A DNA stretch of 64,000 bases, from NCBI GenBank assembly GCA_964498785.1, contig CAZCJL010000002.1, positions 40,919-104,918 on the forward strand, written 5' to 3'. The stretch comes from an uncultured Cytophagia bacterium (GTDB lineage Bacteria; Zhuqueibacterota; Zhuqueibacteria; Thermofontimicrobiales; Thiofontviventaceae). Below are positions 1,897 through 55,545 of this stretch, piece by piece; within the stretch, counting starts at the first letter, position 1, and each line of letters opens with the position of its first letter. The translations under genes and the position numbers were made by a program. The notes beneath the pieces were generated by a model. It made no database searches, was not told the origin of the DNA, and was given only the letters and a program-made list of their open reading frames with translations.

Positions 1897-2562
1897 ATGA
1901 AAAAAGTAGTAATAATAATTTTCACATTATTGATTGTCACTTCATATCTTTTTGGCGCTGGTCAAAAAGTTTTGGTAGATTCTGTTCAAATTAATAACAA
2001 TTATTTGACTATTGATTTTAGCATTGAAGGTATTATCGATGAAAAAATCGCTGAGGGCTTGATTAAAGGCAGAACACTTACGCTGGAATACAATATTCAA
2101 TTATGGGAGAAAAGTTCGGGATTAATAAATCATTTAAAAATCGAACGTTTTGTTCGAATGAAAGTCAATTTCGATTTTTGGGAAAACAAATTTGTAATTT
2201 ATCAACCAGGAGAAAAACGCTTAACCAGTTCCATCGAAACGGTTCGCGAGAGATGTTCCGAAATCGATGATTTTAATGTCATATCACTGGAAAAATTGAA
2301 ATCAGAGTCCGATTACTTTATCAATATTGAGATTGTATTGAAACCATTGTCTGTAGAAAATTATGAGGAAATTAAGAACTGGTTAAGCGGAGAAGTAAAG
2401 GACATCAGTTTAAAAAGAATGAGTAACCCGGAAGAGCAAGAAAAAGGATTTAAAAATCGAATATTAAGAATTTTTATGGCAATCACTGGATTTGGAGATC
2501 GCGTGATTTCTGGTAAAACTGAAAAATTTGTTATTCAAGGAAATAAAGTTCTGTGGCATTAA
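1897..2562 (+). CDS. Hypothetical secreted protein (signal peptide)
   Basis: 221-aa ORF with an ATG start and an N-terminal hydrophobic signal-like segment (MKKVVIIIFTLLIVTSYLFGAG). I recognise no catalytic motif. Confidence 0.5.
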   Translation: MKKVVIIIFTLLIVTSYLFGAGQKVLVDSVQINNNYLTIDFSIEGIIDEKIAEGLIKGRTLTLEYNIQLWEKSSGLINHLKIERFVRMKVNFDFWENKFVIYQPGEKRLTSSIETVRERCSEIDDFNVISLEKLKSESDYFINIEIVLKPLSVENYEEIKNWLSGEVKDISLKRMSNPEEQEKGFKNRILRIFMAITGFGDRVISGKTEKFVIQGNKVLWH

Positions 2563-2621
2563 ATTTGAATTTAATGTGATATCCAATAATGTAAAATAGT
2601 CCCCCTAACCAGGTCTCTAAA

Positions 2622-11925: not shown

Positions 11926-12287
11926 GGGGACGACCTTGGCTTCGACGGGGGTCAGTGGAGTCATGGATAGCATACCGAGGTCTCCTGGTACCTCGAAAAA
12001 TAACAGGAAACTACAATTAAATGCAGATAATTATGCATACGCAATGGCTGCCTAAATAGGGCAACCCGTTCCTTTCGGGCTGTGCTCATCCGGTTTGAAT
12101 GTGAACGTCGACTAATGATGAGATAGCTTTTTTTCTTGCCTGAGGAGGAAAAGCGAAATTTAATCAGGATAGCATCTGGCTGTTTTTGTTTGTTGTGATT
12201 CCAGGTGCGAAATAATGCAACAAACTAAGTATGTAGAAGTCTGTGATTTCAGGCTTTCGGACGCGGGTTCGATTCCCGCCGTCTCCA
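11926..12287 (+). ncRNA. ssrA: tmRNA (SsrA), standard one-piece form
   Basis: 5' GGGGACGACCTTGGCTTCGACGGGGG... and 3' ...GGACGCGGGTTCGATTCCCGCCGTCTCCA are the tRNA-like acceptor/T-arm halves. The internal tag reading frame is GCA GAT AAT TAT GCA TAC GCA ATG GCT GCC TAA at 12023-12055, giving ADNYAYAMAA-stop. The 3' end is followed by CTA rather than an encoded CCA. Confidence 0.92.
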
Positions 12288-12299
12288 CTAATTTACCAT

Positions 12300-16325: not shown

Positions 16326-16552
16326 TTTAAGGTTAATAATACACAGAATTCAATATCTTTCTCCGATTGCAAATTATATACCATGATAATTAATGAAGTT
16401 AAATTAATGTTCAATAAATTAAACAAGTATTATCAATAGTTTATATATTATTAGATAATTGAGCGATTATTCTGTGGTGTGCATCTGTGAAACAGTTGTT
16501 TCAATGTAACACATCATTTTTGTATCGATTAGAGTCAATAGCAGGGAGGAAT

Positions 16553-16616: not shown

Positions 16617-17996
16617 TCATTTTACCATGGGAAGTCCATATTTTTTGGCTTTGCGGTAGATGGTTGCTCGGCCAATACCAAGTTTTTTGGCTGTCTGTGA
16701 AATATTGCCCTCACACTCGAGCAAAGCCTGCTTAAGTGCCTCTTCTTCCAGCTTTTCGATCCAACTGGAAAGTGTATTATCCGATTCGTAAAGCTTTTTT
16801 TCTCCGAGAGATTTAACAGCAGGTGGAAGGTCTTTGGGTGTTATTTCGCCATTCGTTGCCAATACAATGGCTCTTTCGATAGCATTTTCTAATTCTCGAA
16901 CGTTGCCGGGCCAATGATAAGCCATTAAAAGTTCAAGCGCATCCGGTGAAATGCCGGTTACATTTTTGTTTTCCTCTTTCGAATATTTGTCCAGAAAAAA
17001 TGCCGATAAAAGTGGTATATCTTCTTTGCGTTCTCTTAAGGGTGGTAATTTAATCGGAAAAACGGAAATTCGATAATAAAGGTCCTCCCGGAATTCGCCA
17101 TTTTTCATTGCCTCTTCTAAATTTCGGTTTGTGGCGGAAATTAATCGGACGTCAACTTTTATGAGTTCGTTGCCACCAACTCGCTCAAATTCACGTTCCT
17201 GGATAACTCGTAATACCTTTGCTTGAGTTACCGGACTCATTAATCCCACTTCATCAAGAAAGACCGTTCCATTGTTCGCTTGCTCAAATTTACCCATACG
17301 ACGACCTGTTGCTCCGGTGAAAGCGCCTTTTTCATGCCCAAAAAGTTCACTTTCGAGGAGTGATTCCGGCAGCGCAGAGCAATTTACTGCAACGAAAGGT
17401 TTATTCGCTCGTTTGCTATGATAATGAATAGCTCGCGCAATTACCTCTTTGCCAGTGCCACTTTCGCCCTGTACTAAAACAGTCACATTGCTATCGGTCA
17501 CTTTTTCAACCGATTTGAACACTTCTTGCATTACACCGCTTTGGCCAATAATATTTTTGAATACATATTTTTGTTTGAGTTCAATTCTTAGTTCATCGAT
17601 TTCTTTCTGAAGAGAGCTGTTCATTAGGGCATTTTGAACAGTGACTGGTATTCTGTCCTTGCTGAAGGGCTTTTCAACAAAATCATAAGCGCCAAGCTTC
17701 ATGGATTGGACAGCTTTTTCGATTGTCCCGACTGCTGACATCATCACAACTGGAATTCGGGGATCCTCTTCCTTTATTCGCTTTAGCGTTTCAATCCCAT
17801 CGATCCCGGGCATCTGAATGTCAAGCATAATGAGATCAGGAATATACTCTCGCAATTGCTTGAGGCATGCTTCACCGTTCGCAGTTTCTTTAATTTCATA
17901 AGACTTGAATTTTGATAAATTCGCTTTGATTAGCTTTCGAATGTTTGGATCATCATCAACTACAAGTATACTATAAACCCGTCCTGTGGTACTCAC
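16617..17996 (-). CDS. Sigma-54-dependent response regulator (NtrC/AtoC family enhancer-binding protein)
   Basis: REC domain (ILVVDDD...LDIQMPGIDG). AAA+ domain with Walker A GESGTGKE and the sigma-54 contact motif GAFTGA. C-terminal Fis-type HTH. GTG start with SD GGGAG. Confidence 0.9.
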   Translation of the reverse strand: MSTTGRVYSILVVDDDPNIRKLIKANLSKFKSYEIKETANGEACLKQLREYIPDLIMLDIQMPGIDGIETLKRIKEEDPRIPVVMMSAVGTIEKAVQSMKLGAYDFVEKPFSKDRIPVTVQNALMNSSLQKEIDELRIELKQKYVFKNIIGQSGVMQEVFKSVEKVTDSNVTVLVQGESGTGKEVIARAIHYHSKRANKPFVAVNCSALPESLLESELFGHEKGAFTGATGRRMGKFEQANNGTVFLDEVGLMSPVTQAKVLRVIQEREFERVGGNELIKVDVRLISATNRNLEEAMKNGEFREDLYYRISVFPIKLPPLRERKEDIPLLSAFFLDKYSKEENKNVTGISPDALELLMAYHWPGNVRELENAIERAIVLATNGEITPKDLPPAVKSLGEKKLYESDNTLSSWIEKLEEEALKQALLECEGNISQTAKKLGIGRATIYRKAKKYGLPMVK

Positions 17997-24745: not shown

Positions 24746-26167
24746 TTATTTCTGATAGATATTGTACGTATTTAGCAATCGATAAATTGTCATCCGATTG
24801 ACCTTTGCATATTTAGCCACTTTTGATATATTACCATTGCACCTGGAGAGTAGCGCCTGGAGATACGCTTTTTCAAATTGACTGATCCATTTTTTTCGAG
24901 CTTCTTTGAGTGGTAAATTATTTTTTAAAGTTAGATTGTTAGCAGCCTGGTAGTCACGGATATCCTGAGGCAGGTCTTCCGGAAGTATTGTTGATTTATG
25001 CAGAGATTCTACTAAACCTCTGATTACTGTCTCGAGTTCATTAACATTGCCGGGCCAACTATATTGTTCAAGAATATTAATGGAATCATTTGAGAATTTC
25101 ATATTTTTTTGCTTTTTGTATTTATTTAAAAAGTGAAGTACCATTGGTGCAATATCATCCTTCCGCTCGTTGAGGCGCGGGATGTTAATTTTAAAAATTC
25201 TTTTATGATCAAAATTAATTCTTAAATTGTTCATAAATGTATTCTCAGAAATATTGTTGTCGATTCCGATAATGACACGGGTATCACAAGATGCAACTCG
25301 AACACTGTTGGATTTTTGATAGCGGTTTGTTAATAAAAAGTGAATGATTTTACTTTGCAAGCGCTCGTTAAATGTATTAAAATCGCATAGATAAAGAGTT
25401 CCGCGATCAGCCTTTTTAAGAAGGCCATTACTCGATTGTGTTGAAACAGGGAACGAGTTTTCTTTATAACCAAATAGTAAATTTTCTAATAAAGAATTTT
25501 GTAAGCCATTTCCATGAAAGGGAATGAAAGGATTTTTAGCTCGATCACTGTTGAAGTGTAGCGCACTGGCGATTATTTCTTTTTCTGTTCCGGGCGCGCC
25601 GAAAAGAAAAATATGGGCGTTTGTACAAGCATGTTTTTTAAGCTTTTCTAAAAGAGTTCGCATTTTGGATGAAATCGCGATGATGTTTGAGAAATCGTAG
25701 TCAGTCTTAAGTTGTGACTTTAGCCGATTGTTTTCCTGTTCCAGTGTTTCAATCCGCATTTGATGATGGTAATGTTTCGAGTGTAATAAAACGAGATTTT
25801 CAATGATTTCAAAAAGTTCTTGAAAACTGAATGGTTTGGATAAAAACAAATCCACTCCCATTTTTCGTAAATCATCCTGTGGAATAAGGTCTTTGCGTAA
25901 AGATGAAAGCATAATGACCGGTATGGATTTAACGTTACGATATAGAGGATTTGAGGCGAGTATCGACATGAATTTGTAACCGTTCATTGCAGGCATCATA
26001 TAATCCAGAATAATTAAATCAATGTTTTTTTGCAGAATAAGATTTAATCCTTCGTTACCATCCCCTGCTGTTATCAAATTATCGTGTGTCTTTTCAAAAT
26101 ATTTTTTAAAAATAAATTGTTGATCAACGTTATCATCAATTAATAAAATATTGTACTGACTTTCCAT
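24746..26167 (-). CDS. Response regulator with a degenerate sigma-54-interaction (AAA+) domain and a Fis-type HTH. It is probably ATPase-inactive.
   Basis: REC domain (NILLIDDN...ILDYMMPAMNG). The central domain is colinear with NtrC AAA+, but Walker A reads GAPGTEKE instead of GESGTGKE and there is no GAFTGA. The C-terminal HTH is NGNISKVAKYAKVNRMTIYRLL. The first ATG is at 26167. The track start at 26230 is a TTG. Confidence 0.75.
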   Translation of the reverse strand: MESQYNILLIDDNVDQQFIFKKYFEKTHDNLITAGDGNEGLNLILQKNIDLIILDYMMPAMNGYKFMSILASNPLYRNVKSIPVIMLSSLRKDLIPQDDLRKMGVDLFLSKPFSFQELFEIIENLVLLHSKHYHHQMRIETLEQENNRLKSQLKTDYDFSNIIAISSKMRTLLEKLKKHACTNAHIFLFGAPGTEKEIIASALHFNSDRAKNPFIPFHGNGLQNSLLENLLFGYKENSFPVSTQSSNGLLKKADRGTLYLCDFNTFNERLQSKIIHFLLTNRYQKSNSVRVASCDTRVIIGIDNNISENTFMNNLRINFDHKRIFKINIPRLNERKDDIAPMVLHFLNKYKKQKNMKFSNDSINILEQYSWPGNVNELETVIRGLVESLHKSTILPEDLPQDIRDYQAANNLTLKNNLPLKEARKKWISQFEKAYLQALLSRCNGNISKVAKYAKVNRMTIYRLLNTYNIYQK

Positions 26168-26479
26168 AACTATCCTCAGAGTTGCTTGATTGTTGGTGAA
26201 TAGTTTTGATACTTTCAAAATTAATGCCAAAAGCGAAAAATTTTTTTATTAATTTTGAAGTGCCTTAAACGCTTTGAGATACACTTACATTAAGTGATGT
26301 TATCGAATAATTGGTTGTGTATTATTGTCCGTTTTTGAAACAAATGTCAGGAGGTTATACGTTGTTGCTCAAACTTAATATTTCTGATTATTTTAAAATT
26401 ATGCTTTGGATTTAAATAATCAATTCTTATATTATGACAATAAAAAAAGTCTGTTTTATTAACGAAAGGATTCTGACTT

Positions 26480-34183: not shown

Positions 34184-35161
34184 ATGGAGCAAAAATTAAT
34201 TAAGGATTTGAAACCAGGTGATTCTGTATTAACTTTTTTTGTGATTCGTAAAAAAGAAATCAAACAAAAAAAGTCAAACGGAGATCTATATCTATCTTTT
34301 GAATTTGGTGATCGTTCCGGAAGAATTCGAGGATCAGTGTGGGAAAACGTGGAAAAATTATATCAGGAATTTCATGTTTCCGATGTGGTGAAAGTCAAGG
34401 GAAAAGTGATCAGTTATCGCGAAGAAGCCCATCTTTCTATTGGAAAAATGCGAAAAACAATTACGTCAGACAATATCCGCCCGCAGCAATTCCTTCCTGA
34501 AAGCAATACTGATAATAAAGAAATAGATCGTGAATTAATGGATTGGATTGCCAGCATTCATAATGCCCATATCAAAACCCTATTAGAGGGGATTTTCAAT
34601 GATCCGGAAATAAGGGAAAAATTCATGTTTGCACCAGCCGCCAAATTGTGGCATCATAATTATTTGGGCGGATTGGCGGAACATACATTATCTCTGATAA
34701 ATCTGTGCCATCAATTACATCAACTCTATCCTCAACTAAATCGGGATGTTTTATTAGCCGCCGCGTTACTGCACGATCTTGGCAAAATTTATGAGTTGGA
34801 AACCAAAGGATTTATTAATTATTCTGCTGAAGGTCGTTTGATAGGCCATATTTCCATGGCATGCGAAATCGTGAACGATAAAACAAAAAACATAAAAGAT
34901 TTTCCCGACACCATAAAACAACAACTATTACATTGTATTTTAAGCCACCATGGCAAGCAGGAATACGGTTCCCCGGTTGTGCCGATGACTTTAGAAGCGC
35001 TGGTATTGAATTATGCGGATGAACTTGATTCAACGATTGCTGCATTTATGCGCATTAAAAAGAAAGATCACGAACCAGGAAAACAATGGAGTAATTATGT
35101 GAATTTGCTGGATCGTTTTCTATATATCGAAGATTTGTCAGAACATAAATCTTCCGATTGA
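34184..35161 (+). CDS. YhaM-like 3'-5' exoribonuclease (OB-fold plus HD domain)
   Basis: N-terminal OB-fold region and a C-terminal HD motif (HTLSLINL...LLHDLGKIYE). Confidence 0.75.
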   Translation: MEQKLIKDLKPGDSVLTFFVIRKKEIKQKKSNGDLYLSFEFGDRSGRIRGSVWENVEKLYQEFHVSDVVKVKGKVISYREEAHLSIGKMRKTITSDNIRPQQFLPESNTDNKEIDRELMDWIASIHNAHIKTLLEGIFNDPEIREKFMFAPAAKLWHHNYLGGLAEHTLSLINLCHQLHQLYPQLNRDVLLAAALLHDLGKIYELETKGFINYSAEGRLIGHISMACEIVNDKTKNIKDFPDTIKQQLLHCILSHHGKQEYGSPVVPMTLEALVLNYADELDSTIAAFMRIKKKDHEPGKQWSNYVNLLDRFLYIEDLSEHKSSD

Positions 35162-35332
35162 GAGGGATGCATGTGCGGCAGACTGATTGCCTTGGAGATA
35201 ATCTATCTCAAAAGTAGTCCCGAAGCAGCTTTAGCGAGAAATAGTCTACAATTAATTCATTGCCCAAATCGTTTTTAGTAGACTCCATTAGACGCCTTAG
35301 TTAAAACGCTAAAACTGCTTCAGGTATCCCTC
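35162..35332. ncRNA. Candidate structured RNA element (unclassified). Three nested helices span about 170 nt of intergenic DNA.
   Basis: Closing helix gagggat(35162-35168)/atccctc(35326-35332). A 15-bp helix cgaagcagctttagcg(35221-35236)/cgctaaaactgcttc(35307-35321) with one mismatch. An inner helix agtctac(35243-35249)/gtagact(35278-35284) encloses a 28-nt loop. The strand is not determined. Confidence 0.25.
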
Positions 35333-35627
35333 CGAAATTAAATCAATTGTCATTTTTTATTTATTTTATAATTTTACAGTATCCCCTTCAATGATCATAC
35401 CAAAGATATGATTTTGTTAAAATGTCTGTTATTAATGTAGTTATAAAAATCAGATCGTTTCGCTTTCTTTATCATTTTGATACTGCAACCAAAAATTTAT
35501 TAAATTGAGAATTCAACATCCTGGTTTAATTAAATGCAGGCTATTTAAAAATTTAATTTCGATCTCGAAACTTTTACATCTATTTTACGTTTTAAAAACC
35601 AGTATTTCGATATTTAATGGAGGGATT

Positions 35628-36335
35628 ATGGATAATATCACTGCTGAAAAAAGCAACCATATAAGTACATTTGAAAAAATAGTAAATGTATTCGTAGAAC
35701 CAAAAACAACATTCCAAAGCCTAAATCAAAATCCGGATTGGTTTGTGCCGATGATTATCGTTCTTGCAATCGTTGTCTTGTTTACGACGATTATTATGCC
35801 AATTGTATTGCCCGAGCAGATGGAACAACAAAAAACAAAAATGGCAGAAAAGGGAATGAGTGACAAAGAAATTGCAAATGCCGTGGCAATCGGGCAAAAA
35901 GTTGGGAGAATCGTCGGTCCTATATCGGCGAGTATTGTAATGATAATATATTTACTTGCTGTTTCCGGCATTTTGTTATTCACCGGAAATATAATTATCG
36001 GCGGCGAAACCAGTTTCAAAAAAGTGCTATCCGTTGTAGCGTATTCATCTTTGATTGGCAGTTTGGGATCACTTTTAGTTTTGCCTCTTATTCTCGCTAA
36101 GAAGACCATGCATGTCGGTTACAACCTGGCAGCTTTCATGGCCTCGGATGCGCATAAAACTCCGCTGTACCAATTTTTATCAAAAATAGATTTCTTTGCA
36201 ATTTGGCAGGTCATCGTAATCGGGATCGGCTTGTCTGTCATTTATAGATTCACTCCCAAAAAATCAATATCAATGGTTGCGATTTTATATGTATTTTACG
36301 TTGTTATTTCAGTTGTGATAACAAGTGTATTTTAA
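35628..36335 (+). CDS. Yip1-family integral membrane protein
   Basis: About 235 aa with five TM helices and Yip1-like topology. The ATG at 35628 is preceded by GGAGGGA. The track's long N-terminal extension from 35505 begins at a TTG in an AT-rich spacer. Confidence 0.65.
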   Translation: MDNITAEKSNHISTFEKIVNVFVEPKTTFQSLNQNPDWFVPMIIVLAIVVLFTTIIMPIVLPEQMEQQKTKMAEKGMSDKEIANAVAIGQKVGRIVGPISASIVMIIYLLAVSGILLFTGNIIIGGETSFKKVLSVVAYSSLIGSLGSLLVLPLILAKKTMHVGYNLAAFMASDAHKTPLYQFLSKIDFFAIWQVIVIGIGLSVIYRFTPKKSISMVAILYVFYVVISVVITSVF

Positions 36336-55188: not shown

Positions 55189-55545
55189 TTATCTGGTATC
55201 TTCTACAATAATTATACCAAAGGTTTTGTCTGCAAAAGTAAATCCAATGTTGACAATGCCCTTAATCGTTACGGTTTCGCCCTTCAGGGGAACCCGACCT
55301 GCAGGTTTCACCCAGATTTTTCCGGTCGTATCGCTAATTTGACAAAAACCTTTATCAATAAAGGGAAGCGCGATAATTTGAATCACTTCTCCTTTAACTG
55401 TAACATTTTTATTTTTAAAATGTTGCGGATTGCTCTGTATCGAATCAATATGGTGTGGAATAATCGCAGCGCAATCTATTTCGATTGCAATCAAAATAAT
55501 CAAAAGGATAATAAACGTGGTTTTGTCGCGATATGAATTTATCAT
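55189..55545 (-). CDS. Hypothetical membrane-anchored small protein
   Basis: 118 aa with an N-terminal TM helix (TFIILLIILIAI). No recognisable motif. Confidence 0.45.
   Translation of the reverse strand: MINSYRDKTTFIILLIILIAIEIDCAAIIPHHIDSIQSNPQHFKNKNVTVKGEVIQIIALPFIDKGFCQISDTTGKIWVKPAGRVPLKGETVTIKGIVNIGFTFADKTFGIIIVEDTR

Follow-up and report, generated by a model that had tools for sequence, protein, structure and literature searches.

The spacer between yhaM and yip1, two neighbouring genes in the 64-kb stretch of DNA analysed here (the window), contains a conserved, unclassified and structured non-coding element, the core of which is 72-94% identical between lineages, the long helix of which is kept in all four lineages that carry it, and for which there is no Rfam family; the initial annotation of the locus, which had described a candidate unclassified structured RNA, is borne out to that extent. 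The reading preferred here, which is given a probability of about one half, is that the element encodes a lineage-specific small non-coding RNA. This RNA would be transcribed on the minus strand, in convergent orientation to yhaM and in divergent orientation to the efflux-type operon yip1-OEP-HlyD. Transcription would start 10-25 nt downstream of an 18-nt promoter-like block, TTTGGTATGATCATTGAA (at ~35376 if this is a sigma-54 promoter and at ~35387 if it is an extended -10 promoter), and the RNA would pass through an unconserved A/U-rich leader and then the segment UCGGAGGGA to enter a long helix, P2, that would enclose ~70 nt with the motifs GGCGUCUAA and AUUUGGGCAA in single-stranded form. 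The RNA would probably end at a U-run after P2, at ~35205, giving a predicted length of ~135 nt for the conserved part and of ~175 nt from the predicted start. P2 would act as both scaffold and stabiliser and would present AUUUGGGCAA, GGCGUCUAA and possibly UCGGAGGGA to target mRNAs, by base-pairing, or to a protein, with expression controlled through the promoter block and a palindrome upstream of it. A stand-alone RNA of this kind is judged likelier than a leader of the downstream gene, which agrees with the preference expressed in the initial annotation.

No regulatory RNA from the host phylum, candidate division KSB1 (Zhuqueibacterota, as identified from the flanking proteins), was found in Rfam or in a literature search, and the element would represent a new clade-restricted RNA family with a conserved promoter block and conserved loop motifs. 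This would be a small addition to the catalogue of bacterial small RNAs and possibly a case in which such an RNA arose recently, and it touches no long-standing open question.

The locus and the lineages that carry the element

The element begins at the yhaM stop codon (the ORF ends at 35161 and the element starts at 35162) and the ATG of yip1 is 296 nt past its end, so the direct contact with a YhaM-like gene and the ~300-nt distance to the downstream gene that had been described are both correct. Downstream of yip1 are the genes for an outer-membrane efflux protein (OEP) and then a HlyD-type adaptor, while a penicillin amidase is encoded upstream of yhaM, and the order amidase-yhaM-spacer-yip1-OEP-HlyD is common to all four carrier lineages. 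The G+C content is ~0.40 in the element and its core compared with 0.25-0.30 in the remaining spacer. Other conserved spacer blocks before yip1 are TTATTAAATTGAGAAT (35497-35513) and CTCGAAACTTTTAC followed by CTATTTTACGTTTTAAAAGCCAGTATTT (35560-35610), the last of which contains two TTTTAC repeats ~11 nt apart, and these blocks are presumably regulatory sites of the yip1-OEP-HlyD operon, of the putative divergent RNA gene, or of both. The coordinates of the features discussed are collected in Table 1.

Table 1. Features of the yhaM-yip1 locus and sigma-54-like sites elsewhere in the window (window coordinates; strand in brackets where one is assigned)
Feature	Position (strand)	Sequence or size	Remarks
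yhaM	34184-35161	325 aa	YhaM-like 3'-5' exoribonuclease; OB-fold and HD domain
Outer helix P1	35162-35169 with 35325-35332	GAGGGAT(G) with (T)ATCCCTC	window sequence
P1 partner	35162-35169 (-)	CAUCCCUC	window-specific; abuts the yhaM stop codon
Tail after P2	35203-35218 (-)	ACUAC-UUUU	possible 3' end or weak terminator tract
Long (middle) helix P2	35219-35236 with 35307-35324	CCCGAAGCAGCTTTAGCG with CGCTAAAACTGCTTCAGG	window sequence
P2 3' arm	35219-35237 (-)		sequence conservation ends here
P2 5' arm	35306-35324 (-)		pairs with 35219-35237 over 18-19 bp
Inner helix P3	35243-35249 with 35278-35284	AGTCTAC with GTAGACT	window sequence
P3 3' arm	35243-35249 (-)	GUAGACU	inside a 10-nt deletion in L003
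P3 5' arm	35278-35284 (-)	AGUCUAC	pairs with 35243-35249
Apical-loop motif	35260-35269 (-)	AUUUGGGCAA	invariant in 4/4 lineages (alignment A3)
Internal-loop motif	35288-35296 (-)	GGCGUCUAA	alignment A3 columns 50-58; GGCGACUUA in L003
Shine-Dalgarno-like segment	35327-35335 (-)	UCGGAGGGA	invariant in alignments A2 and A3
A/U-rich spacer, putative 5' leader	35339-35376 (-)	38-51 nt	34-58% identical to window
Promoter-like block	35387-35404 (-)	TTTGGTATGATCATTGAA, 18 nt	100% identical in 4/4 lineages
Palindrome	35470-35482 (block 35468-35483)	TATCA-TTT-TGATA	kept in alignment A1; TATCATTTTGAGA in L003
yip1	35628-36335		Yip1-domain membrane protein; ATG at 35628
Sigma-54-like site	2554-2569 (+)		upstream of polysaccharide deacetylase gene starting 2622
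Sigma-54-like site	16368-16383 (-)		upstream of 358-aa ORF directly downstream of a sigma-54 activator gene
Sigma-54-like site	26214-26229 (-)		upstream of second sigma-54 activator gene, ATG 26167

By every search route used, the element was found in four lineages only, all of them in KSB1 and all with the element between yhaM and the yip1-OEP-HlyD operon. These are the window itself, which serves as the reference for identities, L005 (the same as L043, and with L044 near-identical), L001 (the same as L002), and L003 (on the same contig as L008, GCA_014729735.1), and the YhaM proteins of the last three are 82, 80, and 72% identical to that of the window, respectively. A few bases in L044 (1-209) differ from L005/L043, one of which (G to C) breaks the long helix while another disrupts the inner helix, and L044 was left out of the covariation analysis because these differences are probably assembly errors at the end of a contig with 3x coverage. 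In KSB1 relatives whose neighbouring proteins are 55-62% identical, the element is absent from the equivalent position. It is missing in L004 (YhaM 62%), where urocanase is found 52 nt after yhaM, and at the loci L045 and L048-L050, which were found through searches with Yip1 and the YhaM C-terminus that added only duplicates (L043, L044) as new carriers. A covariance model built from the four carrier lineages, termed R1, has no match in L045, L049, or L050. In the JGI contig L049 (253-3636), the penicillin amidase and the yhaM homologue are each split into two ORFs, which points to pseudogenes or to frameshift sequencing errors.

Wider searches gave the same narrow distribution. No further homologue was found in a protein-anchored scan of species-representative genomes, and a three-block DNA pattern run against 185,579 such genomes matched the known KSB1 contig (L008) and ~35 sites in unrelated phyla, and R1 rejects all of the latter. 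A promoter-plus-core pattern had a single match in JGI metagenomes, which was a high-G+C chance match that R1 also rejects, viral contigs gave two chance matches to the pattern and none to R1, and blastn against plasmid and phage collections found no similarity. The element is single-copy within the 64-kb window.

In the other three lineages the core (from ~35203/35219 to 35345) is 0.94, 0.89, and 0.72 identical to the window, compared with 0.66, 0.65, and 0.46 for the third codon positions of yhaM and yip1 and with 0.22-0.34 for the intergenic flanks just outside the core. The core is thus under purifying selection, roughly as strong as that at first and second codon positions. Conservation is not evenly spread over the interval of 35162-35332 that was originally delimited. 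Its right part is conserved, while the left 57 nt (35162-35218), which include one arm of the outer helix, are specific to the window genome and unalignable in relatives, and the functional unit lies further to the right, at ~35203-35404 with the promoter block included. On the minus strand, the invariant pieces are, from 5' to 3', UCGGAGGGA, the arm GAAGCAGUUUUA, GGCG.CU, AGUCU, AUUUGGGCAA, and the arm CUGCUUCGG, and identity falls to 22-34% immediately beyond the 3' arm of P2. The loop motifs are conserved as strongly as the helix arms. In the carrier lineages there is no start codon at a usable distance after the Shine-Dalgarno-like UCGGAGGGA. None of the ORFs is conserved, and two short ones were considered as small proteins and rejected: the start of a 35-aa ORF on the plus strand lies in unconserved sequence, and a 26-aa ORF on the minus strand lacks the ATG in L005 and L001 and has a frameshift in L003.

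The helices and the probable functional strand

The three complementary pairs of the initial annotation all exist where it had placed them, and both strands out-fold dinucleotide-shuffled sequences. The plus strand folds at -52.4 kcal/mol (z -3.7) and the minus strand at -61.2 kcal/mol (z -5.0), with 0/200 shuffles as good in either case, and the putative transcript from 35376 to 35203 on the minus strand has a fold z of -5.1. The proposal of three nested helices over 170 nt did not survive comparison with the relatives, since the outer helix is unconserved and one lineage has lost the inner helix. Of the three, the middle helix is kept in 4/4 lineages, the inner helix in three lineages with L003 as the exception, and the outer helix in none of the relatives.

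The middle helix, P2, carries most of the structural evidence. Paired cells make up 96% of the total over the four lineages, compared with 31-44% when the partners are slid against each other. Of its 19 pairs, 13 are invariant, one has changed on both sides (G-C to A-U), and two have wobble changes on one side only (U-G to U-A and C-G to U-G). Covariation on the aligned homologues therefore yields one compensatory change, which is not statistically significant, as 103/500 shuffles reach the observed score with n=4 sequences. Hence P2 rests on conservation and compatible changes rather than on statistics. The inner helix, P3, does not vary in three lineages, and L003 lacks its 3' arm through a deletion, so there is no covariation to assess. 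In the three lineages, AUUUGGGCAA is located in the 28-nt loop of P3, and in L003 it is located in the loop of another hairpin of 6-7 bp (AUGUAU/AUGCAU). A small alternative hairpin draws on the same AGUC as P3, and because of this competition and the absence of P3 in L003 the inner structure is ambiguous. In the window genome, the 5' arm of the outer helix, P1, is UCGGAGGGA itself. P1 was rejected as a conserved feature, since the partners of UCGGAGGGA in the relatives differ in both sequence and distance and exceed shuffles only marginally in their pairing (p 0.05-0.18 per lineage).

The initial annotation had read the element on the plus strand, and it is the minus strand that is now favoured, on account of the G-U/C-A asymmetry, the fold, the promoter-like block and the U-runs. 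In three columns of P2, seven cells are G-U pairs on the minus strand and the corresponding C-A mismatches on the plus strand, with no cases of the opposite kind, such that the minus strand has an uninterrupted 16-bp P2 core in every lineage, and on the plus strand the same helix has one or two C-A mismatches per lineage. The minus fold is also better by 9 kcal/mol. No single one of the strand arguments is decisive, and three wobble columns would favour the same strand by chance in about 1 in 8 cases, but together they indicate that the functional strand is probably the minus strand.

The mismatches in every lineage are a first difficulty for the strongest alternative, which is that the plus strand is the active one and that the element forms a structured 3' UTR or intercistronic part of a yhaM read-through transcript, with possible roles as a barrier to 3'-5' exonucleases, as a processing site, or as a carrier of an anti-Shine-Dalgarno sequence. 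The element abuts the yhaM stop codon, and there is no terminator between yhaM and yip1, so read-through is plausible, and the plus strand too out-folds its shuffles. The anti-Shine-Dalgarno role has a specific candidate pairing, since GGAGGGAU (35619-35626), in the ribosome-binding site of yip1, is identical to the minus-strand segment 35327-35334, which makes it complementary to the element's plus strand, and AUCCCUCC can pair with it across 290 nt. The UCCCUCC of the element, which could mask the ribosome-binding site of yip1 (GGAGGGAUU), does not vary. However, in L003 the ribosome-binding site of yip1 is altered (GGGAGGAAU) and the element does not match it (GGAGGGAC), which means that the two do not co-vary, and the stretch at 35162-35169, with which the anti-Shine-Dalgarno segment pairs on the plus strand, is itself unconserved. 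Moreover, there is no conserved promoter upstream on the plus strand, and the invariant 18-nt block is left without a plus-strand reading. On this balance, a plus-strand element is considered unlikely, although it is the first of the alternatives to be kept in mind.

The promoter-like block, the putative 3' end and the proposed mode of action

The invariant block TTTGGTATGATCATTGAA is situated 38-51 nt upstream of the core on the minus strand and is separated from it by the A/U-rich spacer, which is unpaired in the predicted fold and varies in length between lineages. The block may be either a sigma-54 (-24/-12) promoter or an extended -10 promoter, as its sequence fits both readings and they are equally possible. 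As a sigma-54 promoter it would be read as TGGTAT-N5-TTGAA with a predicted start at ~35376 according to the rule of PMC4591121, and as an extended -10 promoter it would be read as TGgTATGAT with a predicted start at ~35387. The consensus used for sigma-54 was TGGCAC-N5-TTGCW, with GG at -24, TGC at -12, and fixed spacing. Compared with this, TTGGTATGATCATTGAA matches in the GG, the TTG and the exact spacing, has A for C at -12, and has T for C at two weaker positions, so that it agrees with four of the five positions at which E. coli sigma-54 sites seldom deviate, the A for C at -12 being the exception. The same GA deviation at -12 is found in the experimentally confirmed sigma-54 promoter of E. 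coli hydN, CTGGCATGATTTGTGAA, and glmY is a gene for a small RNA under sigma-54 control (PMC4591121). A palindrome within the block, ATGATCAT, is a possible operator.

In the window, four sites fit the relaxed pattern TGGYAY-N5-TTGMW where 0.89 are expected (~4.5-fold), and each of the three sites other than the block has a start codon in matching orientation 43-53 nt downstream. These enriched and gene-proximal sites make it appear that sigma-54 is in use here and that TTGAA is an accepted -12 element. The three sites are TGGCATTAAATTTGAA, TGGTATATAATTTGCA, and TGGCATTAATTTTGAA, two of which have TTGAA rather than TTGCA at -12. The window encodes two sigma-54 activators, at 16617-17996 and 24746-26167 on the minus strand, each with Response_reg, Sigma54_activat, and HTH_8 domains. 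The 358-aa ORF that follows the first of these has no Pfam match, and the site upstream of the second hints at its autoregulation. Elsewhere in the window, TTTGGTATAATTATTGTA at 55204-55221 on the minus strand matches the block at 15/18 positions and has a perfect extended -10 motif (TGgTATAAT). Being inside the 3' end of a 118-aa ORF, with a 340-nt spacer downstream, it was rejected as a second promoter block and taken as a likely chance match. A second, conserved palindrome, TATCA-TTT-TGATA, is located ~100 nt upstream of the predicted minus-strand start and may serve as an activator site or an operator, in common with the divergent yip1 operon.

At the other end of the putative transcript, a U-run of 4-5 U is found 2-10 nt after the 3' arm of P2 in all four lineages, within surrounding sequence that is unconserved. 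A terminator scan misses this site because the enclosed loop is far too large, and it departs from a canonical terminator in that the U-run is short, is set off from the helix by 2-10 nt, and comes after a helix that encloses 70 nt. A second alternative starts from this point, namely that the minus-strand transcript is the structured 5' part of a regulated antisense RNA that extends into the 3' end of yhaM rather than a discrete trans-acting small RNA. Its action would be in cis, through duplex formation, cleavage by RNase III, or interference with transcription, or it would insulate the efflux operon from yhaM read-through. This proposal shares the promoter and strand evidence with a discrete small RNA, and the U-run after P2 would be only a weak terminator. 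The best partner of UCGGAGGGA in three lineages (the window, L005, and L001) is 45-50 nt beyond P2, at or inside the coding end of yhaM, and the RNA would be fully complementary to any yhaM read-through transcript, on which it could therefore act in cis. What speaks for the discrete RNA is that sequence conservation halts abruptly at the 3' arm of P2, which suggests that the functional RNA ends there, and that shuffled sequence pairs just as well as the sequence beyond P2 does. An antisense RNA, together with the cis modes of action that it would entail, is considered unlikely and is rated somewhat below a plus-strand element. It is improbable that the element functions at the level of DNA or is a selfish or relic sequence (a protein-bound inverted repeat, a recombination site, or the decayed end of a mobile element) that gives no functional RNA, even though its main feature is a long, near-perfect inverted repeat and its covariation statistics are weak, because it is single-copy in the window, is found solely at the syntenic site in four lineages and in none of the plasmid, phage, and viral collections, has no transposase, integrase, or repeat family alongside, has single-stranded loop motifs as conserved as the arms, and retains RNA-type pairing, G-U included, at every change in the arms.

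With a discrete minus-strand small RNA as the preferred reading, AUUUGGGCAA is a candidate seed or protein-contact site. No complement of AUUUGGGCAA above chance was found in the window, and no significant duplex was found with the translation-initiation regions of the five neighbouring genes. A more specific scenario is offered as speculation and is held to be doubtful: the RNA would be sigma-54-activated and recent in a single KSB1 clade, born where yhaM met yip1-OEP-HlyD, and it would act through UCGGAGGGA/AUUUGGGCAA on ribosome-binding-site regions or a protein, or would insulate the efflux operon by antisense overlap with yhaM read-through. If this were true, it would be a datable de novo birth of a small RNA in an uncultured phylum.

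Comparison with known RNA classes

The element corresponds to no known class of RNA in the searches made here. No Rfam family matches it at gathering score in the window, the region 35050-35700 at E<=10 gives only a spurious match to a human lncRNA, and three relatives searched at E<=1 give none. The statement in the initial annotation that it is not tRNA-like agrees with the lack of any tRNA or tmRNA at the element by Rfam and ARAGORN, and the one that it is not SRP-like agrees with the lack of an Rfam match. The sole Rfam family at gathering score in the 64-kb window is tmRNA (RF00023), with a full-length gene at 11926-12290 on the plus strand (203 bits). Several other kinds of element were considered and set aside. 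A REP, MITE, or integron attC repeat or a mobile element is contradicted by the single copy in 64 kb, the same syntenic site in 4/4 lineages, and the lack of a plasmid, phage, or viral match, and the conserved terminal core sites of an integron attC are absent. There is no reverse transcriptase nearby for a retron ncRNA, no transposon nuclease gene nearby for a transposon-associated guide RNA, and no Rfam match to a group II intron fragment.

The shape of the element invites comparison with 6S RNA, which it resembles in its size range (135-190 nt) and in being mostly double-stranded with a large unpaired interior. In 6S RNA the central bubble mimics an open promoter, and the RNA binds sigma-70 RNA polymerase and serves as template for product RNA. 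That the element is not 6S-like, as had been argued from its shape, is consistent with RF00013 and RF01685 both being unmatched (in the window at gathering score, in 35050-35700 at E<=10, and in three relatives at E<=1), and the two differ in three respects. The closing helix of the element is a continuous duplex of 18-19 bp whereas that of 6S RNA is interrupted; the interior of the element is an asymmetric 70 nt (22 nt on the 5' side and 5-6 nt on the 3' side, plus a hairpin) rather than a central bubble between two long helices; and 6S RNA is a housekeeping gene found broadly within a phylum while the element is known from four lineages of one small clade. The 3' UTR stabilisers and intrinsic terminators are similar in that they are located right after a stop codon and have a very stable helix, but the element has no plus-strand U-run after the helix (the nearest U-rich stretch on that strand starts ~18 nt after the outer helix), has a 70-nt loop, and pairs better on the opposite strand. 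Its earlier description as something other than a terminator is in keeping with the lack of any terminator-like site in 34900-35800.

Small RNAs that depend on sigma-54 include Qrr1-5 in Vibrio and CrcZ and NrsZ in Pseudomonas. The element has no sequence or structure in common with these RNAs or with GlmY of E. coli, its range is far narrower, and its promoter class is ambiguous, with GA at -12 and an extended -10 reading that is equally possible. What it would share with GlmY, Qrr, CrcZ, and NrsZ is the organization of a stand-alone intergenic gene, in this case with a candidate -24/-12 promoter and a possible activator site ~100 nt upstream, and a structured body that shows conserved single-stranded motifs.
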